DNA of 64,000 nt, taken from assembly GCA_038874655.1 (NCBI GenBank), contig JAVZBY010000001.1:133007-197006 (forward strand). The letters are read 5' to 3'. The first letter of the stretch is position 1; each line of letters starts with the position of its first letter. The notes beneath the pieces were generated by a model. That model ran no database searches. It worked only from the letters and a program-made list of their open reading frames with translations, and had not been told where the DNA came from. This DNA is from Candidatus Woesearchaeota archaeon. Its GTDB lineage: Archaea > Nanobdellota > Nanobdellia > Woesearchaeales > GW2011-AR15. The translations under genes were made by a program, and so were the position numbers. Of this stretch, positions 49,503 to 61,221 are shown piece after piece.

Positions 49503-52500
49503 ATGGAAGCAACAAAAGAAATGAAAGAGTATTTTAATTATATAGAGAATGAAGTAAAAAAAATTTATAATATTAGCACAGAAGCAAGAAAAAAAGGATA
49601 TGATCCAGAAGAAAAAGTAGATATTCCTTTAGCTAAAGGAATATCAGAAAGAGTAGAAGGTTTAGTGAGTGCAGCAGTTCCAGAAATTTTGAATTCTGGT
49701 GTTTCTCAAAGAATATTGAAATTAGAAAAAGAATATGGTTTATTAGACTGGAGAGTAGCTTTAAAGATAGCTGAGGAAGTTTCACAAGAAAAGTTTTGTA
49801 AATTTGAAAATAAGATAAAAGCAATGGAGACTGGTGTAAGAGTAGGATTAGCTTATATTACCTTAGGTGTTATCTCTGCACCATTAGAAGGGTTTATTGA
49901 ATTAAGAGCCAAAAAAAGAAAGGATGGCAAAGAATATATTTCAGCTTTTTATGCTGGACCAATTAGAGCGGCAGGTGGAACAGCAGAAGCTGTTTCTTTA
50001 ATAATAGCTGATTATGTAAGATTAAAAAATGGCTATTTTCCTTATGACCCAACAGAAAAAGAAATAAAAAGATATGTAATGGAATTAAAAGATTATCATG
50101 AAAGAGTTACTAATTTACAATACAACCCCTCTGAAGAAGAAATTGAATTTTTAGTTAAAAATTTGCCAATTGAAATAAATGGAGATCCAACAGAAGATAT
50201 AGAAGTTTCAAATTATAAAGATTTGGAAAGAGTAGAAACAAACAGAATTAGAGGTGGTTTATGTTTAGTTTTGGCAGAGGGGTTAGCTCAAAAAGCACCA
50301 AAATTATATAAGCAAGTAAAAAAGTGGGGAAAATCATTTGGATTAAGCTGGGATTTTCTATCTGATTTTATTGAAATACAAAAAAAAATTAAAGCAAAAT
50401 CAGATGTAAAAAAGGAAAAACAAGAAGAAAAAATTTTACCAAATTACACTTTTATTAAAGATTTAGTTGCAGGTAGGCCTGTATTAGCTTTTCCTTTGAA
50501 ATATGGTGGATTAAGATTAAGATATGGAAGAACAAGAACGACAGGGTTGGCTGCTGCAGCATTACATCCACAAACAATGCATGTTTTAAATGAATATATT
50601 GCAATAGGGACACAAATAAAGGTTGAAAGACCTGGAAAAGCTGCTGCAATAACATCTTGTGATACAATAGATGGTCCAATAGTTAAGTTAAAAGATGGTT
50701 CAGTAATAAAACTAGAAACAACAAAAATAGAAAACGAAAAAATTGAGAAAATACTTTTTTTAGGTGATATATTAATAAATTATGGCGATTTTTCTGAAAA
50801 CGGACACAAATTAGTTCCATGTGGTTATTGTCAGGAATGGTGGATAAAAGATTTTGAAAAATCTGCAGTTAATTTGTTTGGTGCTTTAGATTTTAATAAA
50901 ATTGCAACACTCCTCTCTGTAGATAGAACAATAATAAAAAATCTTTTTTCCAATCCTTTAAAAACAAAAATAACACCAAATTTAGCATTTAAAATATCAA
51001 AGCAATTTAAAATTCCTTTGCACCCAGATTTTATTTATTATTGGACAGCATTAAATATGAAAGAGCTAAAAGAACTTTTTAATTGGTTTTATGAGGGAAA
51101 TAAAATTTATGAAAATAATAAGCTTTTGAAATTAATTCTAAAGCATTCAAAAGAAAAGGAATTTTTAGAAAAAATAGGAATGCCACATTTGTTTGTAAAT
51201 AAAGAATATGTTGTTATTGAACATGAAAATGCGGTTGTTTTAGATGAATTGTTCTTGAAAAAAGATAAAGAATATGTTTTTTCTTTTTTTGAAAATAATG
51301 AAGAAGATGTTTTAGAAATTTTATCAAACATTAGCGGATTTATTATTAGAGATAAAGCAGGAACTTTTATAGGAGCAAGAATGGGTAGGCCAGAAAAAGC
51401 AAAAATGAGAAAATTAAAAGGTAGCCCACATTTCTTATTTCCTGTTGGCGAAGAAGGGGGAAAATTAAGAAGCATACAATCCGCACTTGAAAAAGGAAAA
51501 ATTAAAGCAGATTTTGCCCTTTTTTATTGTGATAAATGCAAAAAAGAAACAATCTTTTCTGTTTGTGAATATTGCAATACTAAAACAGAAAAAAGGTATT
51601 TTTGTGATAAATGTGGTTTACTAAAACAAAAATGTAAACATGAAAAGGTTGTTTCATATAAAAATAAAGAAATATCCATAAATGATATTTTTAATTCAAT
51701 TATTATTAGGTATAATTTTAATATTTTTCCTGATTTGATTAAAGGAGTTAAGGGAACAAGTAATAAAGAACATATTCCAGAACATTTAATTAAAGGCATA
51801 TTAAGAGCAAAACACCATATTTATGTTAATAAAGATGGAACAATAAGATACGATATGATTGAAGTTCCAATAACACATTTTAAACCAAAAGAAATTGGAA
51901 CCTCTATTGAAAAATTAAAAGAAATGGGATATCTTTATGATGTTAAAGGAAACCCTTTAGTAAATGAAGATCAAGTTTTAGAATTAAAACCACAAGATAT
52001 CATTATGCCAGCATCATTAGAAACAGGAGATGAGCCAAGTGATGAAGTATTTTTTAGAATAGCAAATTTTGTAGATGATTTATTAGAGATTATGTATGGA
52101 TTGCCTAGATATTATAATTTGAAAAATAAAAAAGATATTATAGGTCATTTAGTTATAGGCTTAGCACCACATACATCAGCAGGGATTATTGGGAGAATTA
52201 TAGGGTTTTCAAAAACACAAGGTATGTTAACACATCCATTGTATCATGCAGCAATGCGTAGAAATTGTGATGGGGATGAAGCATGTGCAATTCTTTTGTT
52301 AGATGCGTTGCTTAATTTTTCAAGATCTTTTTTACCAGATAAAAGAGGTTCTAGAACAATGGATGCACCTTTAGTTTTAACAACAATATTAGTGCCAGGA
52401 GAGGTTGATGATGAAGTTCATGGTTTAGATGTTGTTTGGGAGTATCCATTAGAATTTTATGAAGCAGCACAACAATATAAAAACCCGTGGGATGTTAAAA

Positions 52501-53015
52501 TTGCACAAATAGATAATTTTTTAGGAACAGAAAGACAATATGAAAAAATGGGGTATACACATGAAACAACTAATATTAATAATGGTGTTTTGTGTTCTGC
52601 ATACAAATTACTTCCAACAATGGAAGATAAATTAAAAGGTCAGATGGATTTAGCTGATAAAATTTGTGCTGTTGTAGCAGATGATGTTGCACAATTAGTT
52701 ATAGAAAAACATTTTTTAAAAGATATAAAAGGAAATTTAAGAAAGTTTTCTACACAACAATTTAGGTGCTCCAATTGTAATCAAAAATATAGAAGACCTC
52801 CATTAAAAGGAAAGTGTGATTGTGGCGGAAAAATAATTTTTACTATTTCAGAGGGAAGTATTATAAAATATTTAGAACCAACAATGAGTATGTCAAGGAA
52901 GTATAGATTACCTAAATATTTAATGCAAACTTTAGAAGCATTACAAAGACAAGTAGATTCTATTTTAGGCAAAGAAAAAGAAAAACAAGTTGGGTTAGGA
53001 AATTGGTTTGGTTGA
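49503..53015 (+). CDS. polC: DNA polymerase D large subunit DP2
   Basis: AGPIRAAGGT, RLRYGR, GARMGRPEK, RRNCDGDE, MDAPLVL; no intein evident. Confidence 0.97.
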   Translation: MEATKEMKEYFNYIENEVKKIYNISTEARKKGYDPEEKVDIPLAKGISERVEGLVSAAVPEILNSGVSQRILKLEKEYGLLDWRVALKIAEEVSQEKFCKFENKIKAMETGVRVGLAYITLGVISAPLEGFIELRAKKRKDGKEYISAFYAGPIRAAGGTAEAVSLIIADYVRLKNGYFPYDPTEKEIKRYVMELKDYHERVTNLQYNPSEEEIEFLVKNLPIEINGDPTEDIEVSNYKDLERVETNRIRGGLCLVLAEGLAQKAPKLYKQVKKWGKSFGLSWDFLSDFIEIQKKIKAKSDVKKEKQEEKILPNYTFIKDLVAGRPVLAFPLKYGGLRLRYGRTRTTGLAAAALHPQTMHVLNEYIAIGTQIKVERPGKAAAITSCDTIDGPIVKLKDGSVIKLETTKIENEKIEKILFLGDILINYGDFSENGHKLVPCGYCQEWWIKDFEKSAVNLFGALDFNKIATLLSVDRTIIKNLFSNPLKTKITPNLAFKISKQFKIPLHPDFIYYWTALNMKELKELFNWFYEGNKIYENNKLLKLILKHSKEKEFLEKIGMPHLFVNKEYVVIEHENAVVLDELFLKKDKEYVFSFFENNEEDVLEILSNISGFIIRDKAGTFIGARMGRPEKAKMRKLKGSPHFLFPVGEEGGKLRSIQSALEKGKIKADFALFYCDKCKKETIFSVCEYCNTKTEKRYFCDKCGLLKQKCKHEKVVSYKNKEISINDIFNSIIIRYNFNIFPDLIKGVKGTSNKEHIPEHLIKGILRAKHHIYVNKDGTIRYDMIEVPITHFKPKEIGTSIEKLKEMGYLYDVKGNPLVNEDQVLELKPQDIIMPASLETGDEPSDEVFFRIANFVDDLLEIMYGLPRYYNLKNKKDIIGHLVIGLAPHTSAGIIGRIIGFSKTQGMLTHPLYHAAMRRNCDGDEACAILLLDALLNFSRSFLPDKRGSRTMDAPLVLTTILVPGEVDDEVHGLDVVWEYPLEFYEAAQQYKNPWDVKIAQIDNFLGTERQYEKMGYTHETTNINNGVLCSAYKLLPTMEDKLKGQMDLADKICAVVADDVAQLVIEKHFLKDIKGNLRKFSTQQFRCSNCNQKYRRPPLKGKCDCGGKIIFTISEGSIIKYLEPTMSMSRKYRLPKYLMQTLEALQRQVDSILGKEKEKQVGLGNWFG

Positions 53016-53032
53016 ATATTTTTAAATTATTT

Positions 53033-53326
53033 TTAATAATAAAAAATAATGTTTATATAAGGGATATCTTTTATTTTTTTAACATTATTTTCAGAAATTA
53101 TTTTCTCTTTTATTAAAAAATTGATAGTTTTTATACCAACAGCGTTTATGCTAGAAGCATTAGATATTTCCATCAATATTTCTGATTCAGATTTTTTTTC
53201 TCCTTTATAAAAATTAGAGCTTAAATCTAAAATTAATGTTTCAGTTTCTATTTTTTTTCCTAGTAATTCAGAATCACATATAGCAAGAATTTTTTTCTCT
53301 CCTGCAATATGTTTTTTTAATATCAT
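53033..53326 (-). CDS. DUF424-family protein
   Basis: LAICDSELLGK, FY.GE, NAVG. Confidence 0.85.
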   Translation of the reverse strand: MILKKHIAGEKKILAICDSELLGKKIETETLILDLSSNFYKGEKKSESEILMEISNASSINAVGIKTINFLIKEKIISENNVKKIKDIPYINIIFYY

Positions 53327-53349
53327 TTTTTAATTTTTTTTGAATATTA

Positions 53350-53748
53350 TTAATTTACAGGGTATTTTGCACCGCATGCATTACATCTTAAAAAAGTAAT
53401 TCTATCTTGTTTGGTTAGTGTTGTTTCTGGTTTGCCACATTCTTTACAGATAACATATTTTTTTGTATATTCTTGTATTTTTTGATTTATTGTTGAAGCG
53501 CTTATTTTTCTTCCTAAAATTAGAAGAGGTTTTTTAACTTCTGCAGGTGTTGCTAATTCTTTTAAAATATATTTTAAGAAGTGTTCTTCATCTCTTTGAA
53601 GTTCATTAGCAATTTGGAAAAAGTTTGATAAAACTGTTTTATTTCCTTGTATATGACCTCTTATATTTGAAACAGTAAATCTTTCTGTTCTTAATACAGA
53701 TTCAGGTAAGTTAGCACGAGCTCTTTTTAGTAATTCATCATAATTCAT
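53350..53748 (-). CDS. eif2b: Translation initiation factor aIF-2 beta
   Basis: YDELLKRA, GNKT...NF, YVICKECGKPET, C.ACGA. Confidence 0.95.
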   Translation of the reverse strand: MNYDELLKRARANLPESVLRTERFTVSNIRGHIQGNKTVLSNFFQIANELQRDEEHFLKYILKELATPAEVKKPLLILGRKISASTINQKIQEYTKKYVICKECGKPETTLTKQDRITFLRCNACGAKYPVN

Positions 53749-53801
53749 AAGAAAAAGAAAAAAAAGAAGATATTTAAAAGTGTTTGTAATTTTTTTTATA
53801 T

Positions 53802-54269
53802 TTAAGCAACTTTACCTCTAATTGAACCTACAGCGTTATTTGTTAATCCACTTTCTGTGTTTGTATATGTTACTGTTACATCATTAGCATCAAATTTGTT
53901 TCCTTTATTTAAGCTACAAGCAATATTTACCTTTAATACTTCATTATTTGGAACTACAGCAGATGAGGTAAATGTTGTATTACTAGCACCAACTGCAAAA
54001 GTTGCTGTTCCTTGGCAAGCTGTTGTTGTTGCACTTGAAACAGTGACAGGGAAACCATTGTTATTTTTTAATGCAAAAGTAATTCCTGTTGTTGTTATAG
54101 CTGCTTTATCAATACAATCCATTCCTGCTGGGAATTGACATCTCTCAGGCAATAACCTTGCAGGATCTAATACACCAAAATATGCTAAAGCAGCAATTGC
54201 AGCAATTACTACTAATATTGCCCAACCATAGGTCATTAAAAATTCCATGGCTGCTTGTCCTTTTTTCAT
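53802..54269 (-). CDS. Archaeal type IV pilin-like protein
   Basis: Class III signal MKKGQ/AAMEFLMTYGWAILVV; Thr/Ala-rich beta domain; RBS GAGGTGA. Confidence 0.88.
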   Translation of the reverse strand: MKKGQAAMEFLMTYGWAILVVIAAIAALAYFGVLDPARLLPERCQFPAGMDCIDKAAITTTGITFALKNNNGFPVTVSSATTTACQGTATFAVGASNTTFTSSAVVPNNEVLKVNIACSLNKGNKFDANDVTVTYTNTESGLTNNAVGSIRGKVA

Positions 54270-54401
54270 TATATCACCTCTTTCCCTGGAAGGGATTCAA
54301 TAGTATATTTTATTTTATATTTTATTTTAATTAAATATTATAAAGATATCTAATATATAAATATTACGCTTTTGTATACTGGTTTGTAAAATTATTTATT
54401 T

Positions 54402-55487
54402 TTACCTAGTTATTTCAAAAGATTCAACTTTTTCTTTTAACTTTTTAGCTTCTAGGTTATTTTCAAAATATAATCTTGTAGGTTTGATTAGTTCATTAAT
54501 ATAATAAGCACAAGATTTTTTTAAATCTAAAGGATGTATTTTACCTTCAACGTATAATGATTCTAACTCATTATAACTTTTAATTATTAGTGTTCCTCCA
54601 AATTTATCAGGTCTTTTTATTTCGATGTTATTATATTTTTCAAATATTATATATTTAAAATATTCTAGAATTGGATTTTCATTAGATTGTTTTTCAGGAC
54701 AATATGCTTTGTTTATTTTTCTATTAATATCTTCTTCTTTGTCAGTCATGAAAATAGCAGTATCTGGTTTTGATTTTGACATTTTTAATTCAATTGCTCT
54801 CTCTATGGTATCTTTTTTCTCAGTTTTTATCTGTTGTAAGCCTAAAAGCATATGATGGCTAACAATTATTGGTTTATAGAATCCAATTTTTTCTCCAATT
54901 TCTCTTGCTAAAACATTTACTTTTCTTTGATCAAGGCCTAATTGACATATATCTGCTTTTAAATGAAATATGTCTGCTGCTTGCATACAAGGATATAAAA
55001 TATGGGATGCTTGTAAAATATCTTTTTCAGTTCTACCCATAATTTGTGTTGTTCTAAGTATTCTGTTTAGTGTCGTGTTTCTTGCTATTTGCATGACAGT
55101 TTTCCAGTATTCTTTATTATTTAACAAATCAGAAGCCCATATAAATTCTACATTATTTATATCTAAATCACAAGATTTCCAAACTTCAATGAAATATTTG
55201 CCAACAATTTGTATTTTTTCTAAATCACCGGACATTTTATTGTTTGCCCAAGCATGCCAATCAGCAATCAACATTTTAAATTTGGCTCCAGCTTTTGTCA
55301 TTTTGTTTATGTTAATTGCTCTTAATAATCCTTGTGCAATGTGTATTTTACCAGAAGGCTCAAAGCCATCATAAGCAATAAAGCTTTCTTTTTTTTCAAG
55401 AAGTTCAATTAATTCTTGTTCAGTTATTATTTCTTCACCAACAGATTTTATTATATCTAATCTTTCTTTATTTGTTAGTTTAACCAT
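54402..55487 (-). CDS. tyrS: Tyrosine-tRNA ligase
   Basis: AYDGFEPSG.IH, YPCMQAADI, GLDQRK, KMSKS. Confidence 0.96.
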   Translation of the reverse strand: MVKLTNKERLDIIKSVGEEIITEQELIELLEKKESFIAYDGFEPSGKIHIAQGLLRAININKMTKAGAKFKMLIADWHAWANNKMSGDLEKIQIVGKYFIEVWKSCDLDINNVEFIWASDLLNNKEYWKTVMQIARNTTLNRILRTTQIMGRTEKDILQASHILYPCMQAADIFHLKADICQLGLDQRKVNVLAREIGEKIGFYKPIIVSHHMLLGLQQIKTEKKDTIERAIELKMSKSKPDTAIFMTDKEEDINRKINKAYCPEKQSNENPILEYFKYIIFEKYNNIEIKRPDKFGGTLIIKSYNELESLYVEGKIHPLDLKKSCAYYINELIKPTRLYFENNLEAKKLKEKVESFEITR

Positions 55488-55576
55488 TTTAAAAGAAATC
55501 TTTTTTAATATTATAAAATTTATTGTTAAATATATTTTATGATAAAATTTTTATAAATTATGATATTATAGAAAAA

Positions 55577-55691
55577 ACGACAGCGATTCTGGCTTCCCGC
55601 ACCTAAGTGCAGTACAACCAGAAACATAGGCAGGTTTAACTTCTGTGTTCGAAATGGGAACAGGTGGAACCCTGCCACTATGGCCGTCTTA
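55577..55691 (-). rRNA. rrf: 5S ribosomal RNA (stand-alone)
   Basis: Minus strand GACGGCCATAG...CACCTGTTCCCATTTCGAACACAGAAGTTAA...GTACTG...GGGAA...CGCTGTC. Confidence 0.95.
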
Positions 55692-55734: not shown

Positions 55735-56535
55735 TTAGATTTTTATAGAGTAAGTATCTTCTTTTTTTCTTATTTTTATAATTTTGCATGTTGTTAAATA
55801 TCCATTAAGTAATCCTTTTTTTGCTAATAATGGAAAAATATCTTCTTCTAAACTTTTACCTTGGTATTCTAGAATTTCCGGCTGTGCTATAAAAATAGAT
55901 GAAAAACCCAAGTAAATATCAGTTTTTTCAGGTTTTTGCTGAAATTCTAAAATTTTTGAACCTTCTATTTTTACAATACCTTTTTTTTCAGGCTCTGGTG
56001 TTGTTGTTAATAATAATGTAGCAATGCCCTTTCTTTTTATGTGCTCTTCCCATAATTTATCTAAATCTAAATCTGAAAAATATATATCACCATATAAAAC
56101 TAAAAAGCTGCCTTTTATTTTTCCTCTAATTAAACTTAATGTGTAAAAAGTTCCTAATGATTCTCTTTCTTCAATATATTCTACAGAAACTCCATATTTT
56201 GAACCATTTTGAATAATAGGAAAGACAGAATTTATTATTTTTTCTTGTGCAATTATATATATTTTTTTAAAATCATGTTCTTTTAGCTTCTTAATAATTA
56301 ATTCTATGAGAGGCATATTTTTAATTTTTGCTGTAATTCTATATTCCTCATTAGATATTTTTATATTTTCTTCTGAGCCACCAGATAAAATAACAGCAGT
56401 TTTATTTTCTCCTAATGCATAACTTACTAATAATTCAATGGCTTGACTTCTATTTCTTATATAGATATTATCAATCAAAGAATCAATTTCTTTTAGTGTT
56501 TTTTCATTAATAGTAATTGAAATTTTATGTTTCAT
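55735..56535 (-). CDS. Ribbon-helix-helix / nucleotidyltransferase-like fusion, putative regulator
   Basis: N-terminal KISITI...LKEID......NRSQAIE (CopG/NikR RHH); then AVILSGG, EYIEE...LGT, VLYGD (NTP_transferase fold). Confidence 0.85.
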   Translation of the reverse strand: MKHKISITINEKTLKEIDSLIDNIYIRNRSQAIELLVSYALGENKTAVILSGGSEENIKISNEEYRITAKIKNMPLIELIIKKLKEHDFKKIYIIAQEKIINSVFPIIQNGSKYGVSVEYIEERESLGTFYTLSLIRGKIKGSFLVLYGDIYFSDLDLDKLWEEHIKRKGIATLLLTTTPEPEKKGIVKIEGSKILEFQQKPEKTDIYLGFSSIFIAQPEILEYQGKSLEEDIFPLLAKKGLLNGYLTTCKIIKIRKKEDTYSIKI

Positions 56536-56572
56536 AATAAAAATATAAATAATTTTAATATATAAATATTAT

Positions 56573-56602
56573 TATCTTACTAAGTAGGATAAAAGTAAGA
56601 TA
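56573..56602. promoter_or_regulatory. Tripartite operator between divergent promoters
   Basis: TATCTTAC-TAA-GTAGGATA-AAA-GTAAGATA: one inverted and two direct 8-mers at 11-bp period, between TATA-like boxes on each strand. Confidence 0.62.
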
Positions 56603-56674
56603 TTTAAATATGAATTATTCTTTTCAGAAAAGCAAAAAATATGGCAAAAATAAAATATTAAAAAAGGTGAAAAA

Positions 56675-57985
56675 ATGAGTAAAGAAAATAAAAAACAAAA
56701 GAATGAAAAAAAAGAAGTTTTATCTGTAATTGGTTTAGGTTATGTGGGGTTAATTCAAGCTGCTGGTATGGCAAAATTAGGATATAAGGTTATTGGTTTG
56801 GATATTGATAAAGAAAAGGTAGAAAAAATAAATAAACAAATTCCACCTATTTATGAAAAAGGTCTTAAAGAATTATTAGAAGAAATAGTTCCAAGATATT
56901 TTACAGCAACAACAGATATGAAAGAAGCAATTATGAATTCAGATATAACCTTTATTTCTGTTGGTACACCATCAAAGAAGGAAGGTAGTATGTCAATGCA
57001 TCAATTAGAATCAGTTGTCAAAGAAATTGCACCAATGTTAAAAGATAAGAAATATCATATTTTTGTTGTTAAATCAACAGTTATTCCAGGAACATGCGAA
57101 AACATAGTTATTAAAAATATTGAGAATTTATCCGGAAAAAAGTTTGGTAAAGATTTTAGTGTTGTTATGAATCCAGAGTTTTTAAAAGAAGGTGAAGCAA
57201 TAGAAGATTTCTTTAAACCGGATAGAATTGTTTTGGGTAGTTCAGATAAAAAGGCATTAGAAAAGATTAAAGAAATATATTCTTCATTTACATGTCCTAT
57301 TTTAGAGACAGGATTTAAAGAAGCAGAGATGATTAAATATGCTTCAAATGCATTTTTAGCAACAAAAATTTCCTTTATCAATGAAATAGGAAATATTTCT
57401 AAAAGAATGGGTATAGATGCAAATATGGTTGCTAAGGGAATGGGGTTAGATAAAAGAATTAATCCTTATTTTTTGAGGTCAGGAATTGGTTTTGGAGGAA
57501 GTTGCTTTCCTAAAGATGTTAATGCATTAGTATATAAAGCAACAGAAATAGGATATACACCAAGATTATTAAGAGCTGTTTTAGATGTAAATAGAGACCA
57601 ACCAATAAGATTATTAGAGATTTTAGAACAAAAAGGACCAATTAAAGGCAAGAAAATTGGTATTTTGGGTTTAACATTTAAAGCTGGAACAGATGACACA
57701 AGAGAAAGTCCTGCATTGCAAGTAGTTAAAGAGTTGATGATGGAAGAAGCAGATTTAATTTTATACGACCCAGAAGCAATGGAAAAAGTTAAAAAATATT
57801 TCCCTCATTTGAAATATGCAAAAACAGGGCAAGAAGTTATTGATAAAAGTGATATAATTTTAATATTAACAGAGTGGCCACAATTCAGAGAATTGAATTA
57901 TGGCAATAAATTAGTAATTGATGGCAAAAACTTATTTTATGATAAGCCAAACAAGCCTAAAAATTATGAAGGGTTGTGTTGGTAA
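56675..57985 (+). CDS. ugd: UDP-glucose 6-dehydrogenase
   Basis: GLGYVG, VGTP, KST, NPEFL.EG, KYASNAFLA.KISF.NE, GFGGSCFPKD, FK..TDD.RESP. Confidence 0.93.
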   Translation: MSKENKKQKNEKKEVLSVIGLGYVGLIQAAGMAKLGYKVIGLDIDKEKVEKINKQIPPIYEKGLKELLEEIVPRYFTATTDMKEAIMNSDITFISVGTPSKKEGSMSMHQLESVVKEIAPMLKDKKYHIFVVKSTVIPGTCENIVIKNIENLSGKKFGKDFSVVMNPEFLKEGEAIEDFFKPDRIVLGSSDKKALEKIKEIYSSFTCPILETGFKEAEMIKYASNAFLATKISFINEIGNISKRMGIDANMVAKGMGLDKRINPYFLRSGIGFGGSCFPKDVNALVYKATEIGYTPRLLRAVLDVNRDQPIRLLEILEQKGPIKGKKIGILGLTFKAGTDDTRESPALQVVKELMMEEADLILYDPEAMEKVKKYFPHLKYAKTGQEVIDKSDIILILTEWPQFRELNYGNKLVIDGKNLFYDKPNKPKNYEGLCW

Positions 57986-58827: not shown

Positions 58828-61221
58828 ATGAAGAATATTTTTTTTTATGTGTTTTCTTTTTTTGTGTTTTTAGTTTTTGTTTTTAGTTTTGTTAAAGCAG
58901 AAGACTTTTTTTACGAAGATTTTTCAGATGAAAATATAAATGAAGGATATTTATGGAAAACTAGAAATAATGCATATTATTTTGAAAATGGTAAGTTAAA
59001 TGCAGATGGTATTTCTGATAATGTTGGAAGATATTTTTCACAATTTGATTATTTTTTTAATTTTTCTACAGAAGATTTTGTATTTTCTTTTGAGGGTCTT
59101 TTGAAATCTAATGGAAATCCACAAGAGGGAAAGGGTATTACAGCTTCTTTAGTCGGAAACAATGCGAGATATGATTTGAGAATTTTAAATGGTCAAACCA
59201 GCGGTTTTCCTTTAAATTATTATACTATCTCTTTAGGGTATGGAGATACAACTTTGCATGATTTAATAACAACAAATTTTATTCCATCGAGGGATGTTTT
59301 TTATAATGTAAAAGCAGTTAGAATTAATTGGACATGGTATCTTTTTGTTAATGGTGAGTTAATTGGTCAAGCTAAAGATAATTTAAAGATAACAGATTTT
59401 ATTCAAATCCATATCCCTTGTGTGGGCAGTATAATAATTGATAATATTAATATTAGTTCTATAAAAAAAAGTTATATGTCTAATTTAAGTCAAGAATCAA
59501 CAGAGTTTATAGATGAAGGATTACTTAAATATGCACCAGTTTTTTATTTACATCCAAATGAATATTATGAACCAAAAGAAATAGAATCTATGTTAAATTT
59601 ATCTTTTTTAAAAAATGAAAAAACTATTGTTAAAGAAAATCCTATTTATTATTTTGATATTGAAAATTTAAGTTCAGATTATTATTTAGATTTACAAAAT
59701 GTGGATATAGAAACAGAATTATTGCCTAAAATTTCTGATTTTGATGTTTTTAAGCCAGTTATTTATGGAAGAGCTATTTATTATAATAATCATTCACATT
59801 ATCAATATTTTATTTTTTATCCATTTCAAAAAAGAGGAATAATGAGTCATGAAGGAGATTGGGAATTAGTTCAAGTTAATGTTGATTCTGCAGAAAAAAT
59901 TGAAAGTGTGCATTATTATTTTGACATGTTTAGTTTAGCACATTATAATTTAGAAGATTTAGAATTTGTTAATCAAACACATCCAGTAGTTTATGTTGCA
60001 TTAGGAAGTCATAATAATTATGCACATGATAAAGAAATTGTTTTTGAAAACCCATATGTTTTTTTTCAAAAGTTTTTTGCAGATTTTAAAAAATTAGAGA
60101 AAATAAGTAAAAATGGAATTGTTTATAAACCAAATAATTTAGAAATTTTAAATGAAAAAGAAAAGCAATATGAAATAAAAAATATTTATGATATACCTTA
60201 TGATTTTAAGGGTTATTGGGGACAAATAACAAATAAGGTTTTAAAACAAAGTCCAAAAAGTCCAAAATATGATGGAAGATTTTATAAAATATGGAGAGAA
60301 CCAGAAACATTTGCATATGCACCAGATTTTCCATTTTTTAGTGTTTTTTTATATAGTCCTGTGAATTTTGAAATATTAGATAAAGAAAATAATCAGATAA
60401 ATGATATAAATGAAAAATTACTTTTTTTAAATTATGAACCAAAATCAGCAATAATAAAAGGAAATAACTATAATTTAAAATTAAAATCAAATGATAGCGG
60501 ACAATTTAGTCTTGATGTCTATTTATATGATAATGAAACAAATAAAGGAATTATGGTTTCTTATAAAAATATTACAACAGAGATGTGTTCAAAAGGATAT
60601 TTAAATGCATCTTTTGATTCATATTTTGTTTTATATTATGATAGTAATTGCGATGAGATTTATGAAAAATATTTTCCTAATGAAAATATAACTTTAAATT
60701 TTGATTATACCCTACCAGATAAAGATGAAGATGGAATTAATGATTTTGTAGATAATTGTGTTGATAAATTTAATCCAGATCAAAAAGATTTTAATAATAA
60801 TGGTTTTGGAGATGCATGTGATAATCCAAGATATTATAAAATTAAAGCATTGGAATTATTAAAAAATATAGAAAGAGATTCGAAAAAGGAGAATCATTCT
60901 TATTATGCAATTAATAAGAGTTTAATCTTAGATTATTGGTTTGATGAATTTCGTCCTAAAACTATCAAAGTTTTCTTGTATGAATTATTTGCAGTGCAAC
61001 ACATAAATAATACAGAAATAGAATATTTGTTAGCAAAGGCTGATAAATTAATTTTGGAAAAATTATTTGAAGATTATGAGAAAGAGTCTATAAAACATAA
61101 AAGAAATTTTAAAATCGGTTTTGCAAAAAAGGAATATGAAGAAGGATTAAAGTATTTTGAAAAAAATGAATATAAAAAATCAATTTTGTCTTTCATGAAA
61201 GCATGGAATTTTTTAAATTAA
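58828..61221 (+). CDS. Large secreted multidomain protein (beta-sandwich, Vps62/NPP1-like domain, thrombospondin type 3 repeat)
   Basis: Signal peptide ending VKA; YAP..YLH..E...P, HEGDWE, HPVVYVALGSH; DKDEDGINDFVDNC...NPDQKD...GDACD. Confidence 0.75.
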   Translation: MKNIFFYVFSFFVFLVFVFSFVKAEDFFYEDFSDENINEGYLWKTRNNAYYFENGKLNADGISDNVGRYFSQFDYFFNFSTEDFVFSFEGLLKSNGNPQEGKGITASLVGNNARYDLRILNGQTSGFPLNYYTISLGYGDTTLHDLITTNFIPSRDVFYNVKAVRINWTWYLFVNGELIGQAKDNLKITDFIQIHIPCVGSIIIDNINISSIKKSYMSNLSQESTEFIDEGLLKYAPVFYLHPNEYYEPKEIESMLNLSFLKNEKTIVKENPIYYFDIENLSSDYYLDLQNVDIETELLPKISDFDVFKPVIYGRAIYYNNHSHYQYFIFYPFQKRGIMSHEGDWELVQVNVDSAEKIESVHYYFDMFSLAHYNLEDLEFVNQTHPVVYVALGSHNNYAHDKEIVFENPYVFFQKFFADFKKLEKISKNGIVYKPNNLEILNEKEKQYEIKNIYDIPYDFKGYWGQITNKVLKQSPKSPKYDGRFYKIWREPETFAYAPDFPFFSVFLYSPVNFEILDKENNQINDINEKLLFLNYEPKSAIIKGNNYNLKLKSNDSGQFSLDVYLYDNETNKGIMVSYKNITTEMCSKGYLNASFDSYFVLYYDSNCDEIYEKYFPNENITLNFDYTLPDKDEDGINDFVDNCVDKFNPDQKDFNNNGFGDACDNPRYYKIKALELLKNIERDSKKENHSYYAINKSLILDYWFDEFRPKTIKVFLYELFAVQHINNTEIEYLLAKADKLILEKLFEDYEKESIKHKRNFKIGFAKKEYEEGLKYFEKNEYKKSILSFMKAWNFLN

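Follow-up and report, generated by a model that had tools for sequence, protein, structure and literature searches.

A ribbon-helix-helix–nucleotidyltransferase fusion protein as a candidate UDP-sugar-sensing regulator of a UDP-glucose dehydrogenase gene in a Woesearchaeota archaeon

In a 64,000-nucleotide stretch of DNA from Candidatus Woesearchaeota archaeon (the window; contig JAVZBY010000001.1 of assembly GCA_038874655.1, positions 133,007 to 197,006), we examined a gene for a 266-aa protein that joins a ribbon-helix-helix (RHH) DNA-binding head to a sugar-nucleotidyltransferase (NTase) fold and lies divergent from a gene for UDP-glucose 6-dehydrogenase. The protein is probably a local, autoregulated, NikR-like one-component regulator, whose pseudo-nucleotidyltransferase sensor reads a UDP-sugar of the pathway under its control. 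Within this statement, we hold the part concerning a sequence-specific local regulator with greater confidence than the whole, and the identity of the ligand and the sign of regulation with less.

The fusion gene occupies positions 55735..56535 of the minus strand (stop codon included), and its proposed target, an AglM/TuaD-like dehydrogenase gene, positions 56675..57985 of the plus strand. All three UDPG_MGDP_dh domains of Pfam were matched in the dehydrogenase, which scored 468.6 bits against TIGR03026 (cut-off 189.8). The divergent arrangement, put forward in an original prediction made from the DNA letters alone, was thus borne out. A GGTGA sequence at 56666-56670 is likely the ribosome-binding site of the dehydrogenase gene. 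The host genome is 1.26 Mb long, with 24.5% G+C and 97% completeness, and its closest public relatives carry the labels Woesearchaeota or Nanoarchaeota. A search with the fusion protein returned 624 homologues, among them full-length matches, 55-84% identical, from Woesearchaeota/Nanoarchaeota assemblies.

Between the two genes stand three 8-bp boxes, with starts spaced 11 bp, which fill the 36 bp separating two divergent TATA boxes. Box 1 (GTAAGATA on the plus strand, 56595..56602; TATCTTAC in regulator orientation) adjoins the dehydrogenase TATA box (TTTAAATA, 56603..56610, plus strand, assigned from the archaeal consensus) and so sits at the position of the transcription factor B (TFB) recognition element (BRE) of that promoter. 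Box 2 is GTAGGATA (56584..56591, plus strand; TATCCTAC in regulator orientation), and box 3 is again GTAAGATA, this time on the minus strand (56573..56580) and hence inverted with respect to boxes 1 and 2. The regulator's own putative TATA box (TTTATATA on the minus strand, TATATAAA on the plus strand; 56559..56566) is only 23 nt before the ATG, implying a leaderless or near-leaderless mRNA. Three boxes one helical turn apart between two TATA boxes is the layout that had been described for this region (56573-56602); the sequence and the spacing given for the array were correct, but the inversion of one box had been missed.

The array is conserved well beyond this genome. Relatives of the gene were found in 184 species genomes by a scan of a genome collection, and 80 loci were kept, making 81 with the window. 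A search of the 1.5 kb preceding the gene in all of them located the two-box consensus TATCTTACCNTTATCCTAC in 77 (no mismatch in 51 loci, one in 19, two in six, and four in one) and did not find it in the other four. On the opposite strand, which served as the control, the best match had at least 5 mismatches in 81/81 loci, i.e., the consensus was present in none. The motif thus accompanies the orthologs. Positional conservation, computed on the 76 loci with enough flank, was at least 99% at all eight positions of box 1 and 93-100% per position in box 2. Near-invariance extended beyond the anchor to the TATA box at -6 to -1 (80-100% conserved) and to TTTAT.C.A at +19 to +28, in which the A at +27 is invariant; most positions outside the block, and all those beyond -9 and +40, fell below 0.5 bit. 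Since the proteins encoded at these loci are only 51-81% identical, we take the block to be a phylogenetic footprint of about 37 bp.

The footprint has no second copy in the host. When the 1.26-Mb genome was scanned with a weight matrix derived from the other 76 loci, a single site exceeded 12 bits, namely the window operator (32.4 bits); no site did so in a reversed-genome control, and the exact two-box pattern was likewise unique. The suggested genome scan for such arrays therefore returned one array, in the regulator–dehydrogenase intergenic region, and the regulon would consist of this locus alone. A multi-site regulon was considered and rejected: allowing up to 2 mismatches gave 4 further matches of the pattern, against 4 in the control, and there was no second matrix site.

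We then compared gene context by clustering all the open reading frames (ORFs) of the 81 loci. A dehydrogenase-family gene lies upstream and divergent in 74 of them, which bears out the pairing noted from the single sequence. Operator and dehydrogenase go together: both are present in those 74 loci and both are absent from four, and in three loci the operator is present with no dehydrogenase found (two of these having less than 120 nt of upstream DNA); no locus has the dehydrogenase without the operator. The dehydrogenase gene is followed by one for a canonical 246-aa NTase in 40 loci and by one for an NAD-dependent epimerase/dehydratase in 40 loci, a combination that makes up a route from glucose-1-phosphate to UDP-uronate/pentose.

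Two promoter layouts were distinguished among the 77 operator-bearing loci. In the first, found in 39 loci including the window, there is a second TATA-like element past box 3, and 27/39 have a dehydrogenase that shares at least 55% identity with the AglM-like enzyme of the window. The second layout (38 loci) has a single TATA element, and its dehydrogenase is TuaD-like in 34 cases; the dehydrogenase start is mostly 27-33 nt (usually 29-31) to one side of this element, and in many loci the regulator start is 27-48 nt to the other side. Common to the two layouts is that box 1 immediately adjoins the TATA box, on the expected BRE side of the dehydrogenase promoter.

Insertions occur on either side of the operator. 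Eight loci (L032, L039, L042, L044, L045, L050, L060, and L066) have 200-450 bp of extra DNA, partly G+C-rich and repeat-like, between the operator and the regulator start codon. In these loci the operator stays beside the dehydrogenase start, at 29-30 nt where measurable, suggesting that the dehydrogenase promoter may be the primary target. Seven other loci (L019, L022, L023, L024, L027, L049, and L077) carry a 305-aa ORF between operator and dehydrogenase, on the dehydrogenase strand; there, the operator–dehydrogenase distance is about 0.9 kb and the 305-aa ORF, which had no match in Pfam or NCBIfam, is the first gene beside the boxes.

The N-terminal domain (residues 1-45; 56401..56535, minus strand) has the predicted makeup of an RHH domain of the NikR type, with a KISITI strand, helices at residues 11-20 and 29-40, and an NRS cap. 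A profile made from the N-terminal 45 residues of 20 proteins (family members and paralogues) matched, over about 40 residues, the RHH domains of Escherichia coli NikR (1q5v, E 5.3e-05) and Pyrococcus horikoshii NikR (2bj1, E 1.5e-04), and the N-R-S-x-A-I helix cap is common to these NikR domains and the profile. These matches support the earlier assignment of a NikR-type head. The Pfam model RHH_1 matched 17 of the 20 family N-termini at E<=1 (best 4.9e-05), and K4, S6, and T8, in the β strand, are invariant in all 114 relatives, among 120, that have the N-terminus. The protein is not itself a NikR, as the NCBIfam NikR equivalogs gave weak N-terminal scores of 14-15.5 bits, versus cut-offs of 83-175. 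From its sequence, the head would be expected to dimerize in the RHH manner and to bind DNA in a sequence-specific way, for which the conserved phased boxes offer indirect support.

The rest of the protein (residues 46-266; 55738..56400, minus strand) adopts a sugar-nucleotidyltransferase fold and is the proposed ligand sensor. Pfam NTP_transferase (PF00483) was matched over residues 47-231 with an E-value of 1.5e-19 (71 bits, cut-off 21.2). The AlphaFold model had a predicted local distance difference test score (pLDDT) of 81 overall and of 78-95 over residues 41-260, and its top Foldseek matches were 8x7s, 3hl3, GMPPA/GMPPB (7d74), and RmlA, with E-values of ~1e-17 to 1e-18 and template-modeling (TM) scores of 0.72-0.74. 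The scores fell short of the NCBIfam equivalog cut-offs for AglF (34.7 vs 400), rmlA_long (45.4 vs 320), and Arch_glmU (65.1 vs 292).

Catalytic positions were assigned by alignment to a solved thymidylyltransferase and to the canonical RHH-fused paralogue of the same genome; their catalytic, metal-binding, and sugar-phosphate roles are those that we presume from work on RmlA and GlmU. In the profile alignment to the thymidylyltransferase, 'GGeeeelk.iseeeyrit' faces 'GGTGSRLYPITKVTNKHL'. The G-x-G-T-R loop has become S/P-E-E-x (SEEN in the target), P-K-P has become Y-R-I, with Arg66 in place of the catalytic Lys, the E-K-P motif with its sugar-binding Glu reads Q-K-P, and W-x-D-x-G reads I-x-K/H-x-R/H, with loss of the second Asp. 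The G-D motif, the G-T base loop (G128, T129), G186, and K201 are retained. The signature had been called eroded through loss of both the catalytic Arg and the catalytic Lys; the Arg is indeed lost, but the Lys is substituted by Arg rather than simply absent.

These altered states are shared by the 120 relatives. The loop Gly is Glu in 108 of them and the loop Arg survives in only eight; the catalytic Lys is Arg in 115, the Glu of EKP is Gln in all 120, and in 119 the second Asp has given way to His or Lys; D150, the first Asp, is retained in 119. Overall, G52, G53, R66, E123, G128, D150, G186, Q200, and K201 are each a single residue in 114-120 of the 120 relatives. As the replaced states are fixed, the pocket appears to be remodeled and constrained and not decaying, which agrees with the original prediction of a fold that was kept while its catalytic positions changed. 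We also considered that the sensor might be a recent duplicate of the operon's own NTase and rejected it, that enzyme being 22% identical to the target and the RHH-fused paralogues 30-35%.

If these elements are put together, the NikR-type head would dimerize and read 8-bp TATCYTAC boxes, with box 1 at the site of TFB–BRE contact in the dehydrogenase promoter and the TATA box of the regulator immediately preceded by box 3. An oligomer held by the NTase-fold domains would then shut both promoters by excluding the TATA-binding protein (TBP) and TFB, resulting in repression of the dehydrogenase gene and in autorepression. We favor repression through TBP/TFB exclusion because of the place of box 1, directly against the TATA box on its BRE side in the two layouts. 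The NTase-fold domain would be non-catalytic, with its nucleotide- and sugar-side residues kept as a UDP-sugar pocket. The likeliest ligand would be an end product, UDP-glucuronate or UDP-xylose, acting as a co-repressor; UDP-glucose acting as an inducer seems less likely.

The genome contains four PF00483 genes besides the target, and three of the five carry an RHH head. Paralogue 2, located outside the window (contig 13, L081:740-1570, plus strand), lies between the 23S rRNA gene (L081 1-629), whose 3' end is about 110 nt ahead of the paralogue start, and a phosphohexomutase gene (L081:1609-2946, plus strand). It retains every catalytic motif (GGKGTR, PKA, EKPK, and WFDTGTP) and has two ATCATAC/TTCATAC boxes just upstream of a TATA-like element; TCATAY-N4-5-TCATAY was found at -29 to -68 in 10 of 13 loci of this type, and in none on the reverse strand. 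Paralogue 3 (contig 1, L085:1309-2061, plus strand) is located some 20 kb from the target, about 13 kb past the window end, and its G-loop is missing altogether. Its neighbors, identified by eye, are a cupin-like ORF and an epimerase on the divergent side and, after it, a heptosyltransferase-like ORF. By eye and unscored, TTCATAC pairs stand by the start codon in most of ten loci of this type, and several also show a distal GTATGAA-N4-TTCATAC palindrome; orthologues with TTCATAC pairs come from nine other genomes. Comparison of upstream regions across RHH–NTase architectures, which had been proposed as a check, thus showed phased TCATAC-like boxes specific to each paralogue type and similar to the NikR half-site.

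A number of observations speak against a sensing regulator at this locus, on both the DNA and the protein side. The conserved block is partly a TATA/BRE region, which would be conserved in any case, and the related genomes are non-independent samples. The third box varies by clade (TATnCGATA, TRTAAGATA, or TATACTACC elsewhere), and the inverted form of the window is in the minority. Over the window as a whole, the GTARGATA 8-mer was not enriched, with 6 matches versus 3.9 expected and 17 of 100 shuffles reaching 6. On the protein side, RHH_1 matched the whole target weakly (residues 5-41, E 0.042, 14.3 bits), and even the isolated N-terminus scored 18.9 bits, also under the cut-off of 20.5. 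The AlphaFold monomer model agreed with the β-α-α order, with KISITI, at the place of the N-terminal strand of alternating polar residues, followed by helices 11-20 and 29-40, but the strand was not formed, residues 1-42 had low confidence, and the RHH part had a pLDDT below 50. This low confidence is to be expected of a monomer, because the RHH fold forms only as an intertwined dimer; a homodimer prediction of the full-length protein (score 0.23, mark 0.42) weighs on neither side.

Some of these points would suit a locus with no regulator at all, at which the conserved block is a shared basal promoter (TATA, BRE, and initiator) and the protein is an enzyme whose first 45 residues form a structural appendage: the block does include a TATA box, box 1 is where a BRE should be, and the RHH_1 score of the target is below the Pfam threshold. 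However, 37 bp with three phased repeats far exceed the length of BRE plus TATA, the block is unique in the genome, which TATA/BRE elements are not, the paralogue families have different yet related phased boxes, and the head matches the NikR RHH domain by profile. We consequently regard this explanation as very improbable.

The remaining objections concern catalysis. Arg66 might in principle stand in for the catalytic Lys, and with the first Asp and K201 still in place, some residual or altered catalysis could persist. Moreover, paralogue 2 is intact and yet has the head and the boxes, meaning that fusion to an RHH domain does not by itself imply a dead enzyme. The protein could then be a trigger enzyme, a still active, perhaps altered NTase that also binds DNA and regulates through substrate turnover and not by passive sensing. 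The full set of motifs in paralogue 2, its position beside a phosphohexomutase gene and its own upstream boxes are in keeping with this possibility, as are the conservative nature of the Lys-to-Arg replacement and the retention of D150, K201, and G186. On the other hand, four of the five to six RmlA/GlmU-type positions that we assume to be catalytic are replaced in a fixed manner, two acidic residues have entered the phosphate-binding loop, His or Lys takes the place of a metal-binding Asp, and canonical NTases are available elsewhere in the genome and, in 40 loci, within the regulated operon itself. An active target enzyme thus seems unlikely to us.

The wider family raises the opposite question, namely whether any ligand is bound. 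Of 150 distant representatives, 32 were dropped for their length or for having no N-terminal RHH motif, and the remaining 118 plus the target made 119. The G.G[TS][RK] loop and PK are both retained in seven of these and both missing from 92, indicating that binding of a nucleotide phosphate is dispensable in the wider family. Such losses, together with deletion of the loop in several representatives, would fit an NTase fold that is only an oligomerization scaffold for RHH dimers, in a ligand-blind protein acting as a constitutive, autoregulating repressor or activator. The strong constraint on the remodeled pocket, with nine positions fixed in 114-120/120 relatives, is hard to square with a pure scaffold, and the tight pairing with NDP-sugar (nucleoside diphosphate sugar) genes suggests a metabolic signal. 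We therefore give a ligand-blind regulator a low probability, and a regulator that senses a UDP-sugar through its non-catalytic NTase fold continues to be our preferred reading.

The closest known parallel is NikR. Judged by profile (E 5.3e-05 against 1q5v, with NRSxAI caps in both), the RHH heads of NikR and the target share a subtype, a C-terminal ligand-binding and oligomerizing domain follows the head (a predicted role in the target), and the target would similarly serve as a local promoter repressor. The E. coli NikR site is given in PMC7055735 as GTATGA-N16-TCATAC, and the half-site TC(A/T/C)TAC seen here resembles the TCATAC of NikR. The arrangements differ, the target boxes being in tandem 11 bp apart and the NikR half-sites an inverted pair with 16 bp between. 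The two proteins also differ in that the C-terminal ~220 residues of the target form an NTP_transferase fold and not an ACT-like, tetrameric nickel-binding domain, and in that an NDP-sugar is presumed to be the ligand of the target.

In trigger enzymes such as PutA, BirA, and NadR, an enzyme from the pathway under regulation carries a DNA-binding head; the head of PutA is likewise an RHH domain, and PutA too works from the intergenic region of divergent genes. By analogy, the canonical paralogue 2 may work like them; the target differs, as its enzyme domain is without the catalytic signature and would sense by binding alone. A fold of the same kind has become a sensor in GMPPA, an inactive paralogue of GDP-mannose pyrophosphorylase that detects NDP-sugars through its NTP_transferase fold and exerts pathway feedback; its structure (7d72/7d74) was among the top fold matches of the target. 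GMPPA, however, controls GMPPB allosterically through protein contacts and has no DNA-binding domain. Enzyme-derived sensors are also found in bacterial regulators, such as the aminotransferase fold of MocR/GabR and the sugar-kinase fold of the ROK repressors. These share with the target the reuse of a pathway-enzyme fold as the effector domain of a one-component regulator, but differ from it in the folds, in the DNA-binding heads, and in the domain of life. We know of none among them that has an NTase fold or reads NDP-sugars, and of no transcription factor in any domain of life that reads NDP-sugars through such a fold. A search of the full texts in one collection of papers found no description of an RHH–NTase regulator, consistent with the statement in the original prediction that no characterized example was known. 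In the accessible text of PMC6393860, RHH proteins and nucleotidyltransferases are mentioned only in toxin–antitoxin contexts. Enzyme folds that serve as effector domains of one-component regulators are known already, and NikR is an instance of an RHH head with a ligand domain attached; what is new is the combination of an RHH head with an NTase fold, and the presumed class of ligand.

With an ortholog-level match defined as E <= 1e-74, orthologs of the target occurred in 27 of 61 related genomes (its own genome, 18 of 19 others of the same family, and 8 of 41 from the rest of the order). Among ten distant representatives, one carries a name, a Micrarchaeota-type record labeled AglF. A broader proposal, which we find plausible without quite favoring it, is that RHH–NTase fusions make up a family of transcription factors found throughout the lineage of Woesearchaeota-like DPANN archaea. 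There would be several paralogues per 1-2 Mb genome, ranging from intact trigger enzymes to pure pseudoenzyme sensors, each reading a different NDP-sugar and its own phased variant of a NikR-like TCNTAC box, and jointly they would be the main transcriptional control, in such reduced genomes, of the supply of cell-surface glycan precursors.

To our knowledge, transcription regulation in DPANN archaea is almost unstudied. The locus is a complete, compact, and testable unit, in that the protein has 266 aa, the operator spans 50 bp, and the candidate ligands are few; natural controls are at hand in the same genome, where one paralogue is catalytically intact and another is more degenerate. If our interpretation is right, the system would be a switch for cell-surface sugar supply that shows a path from pathway enzyme to sensor, gives a handle on how tiny symbiotic archaea tune the synthesis of their surface glycans, and may provide a part for a UDP-sugar biosensor.

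Some further features of the window deserve mention. A scan for sigma-70 promoters and terminators gave 9 promoter-like sites (10.3 expected) and 0 terminators, and is uninformative for an archaeon. The regulator gene is followed, after 44 nt and on the same strand, by a 5S rRNA gene (55575-55691, minus strand); the 23S gene lies apart, on a different contig. The stretch from 49503 to 55487 is of a housekeeping kind, with genes named by eye from their translations as DNA polymerase II large subunit (49503-53015), aIF2-beta-like (53350-53748), a pilin-like ORF (53802-54269, with no significant Pfam match), and tyrosyl-tRNA synthetase (54402-55487).

Two genes past the dehydrogenase, a 797-aa ORF (58828-61221, plus strand) has what appear, by eye, to be an N-terminal signal sequence and Asp-rich repeats of the calcium-binding type. 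Relatives of this ORF lie beyond the dehydrogenase, and on the same strand as it, in 8 loci, and one of them (L005:60-2489) has a weak Vps62 match. The 797-aa ORF may encode a glycoprotein tied to the UDP-sugar pathway.

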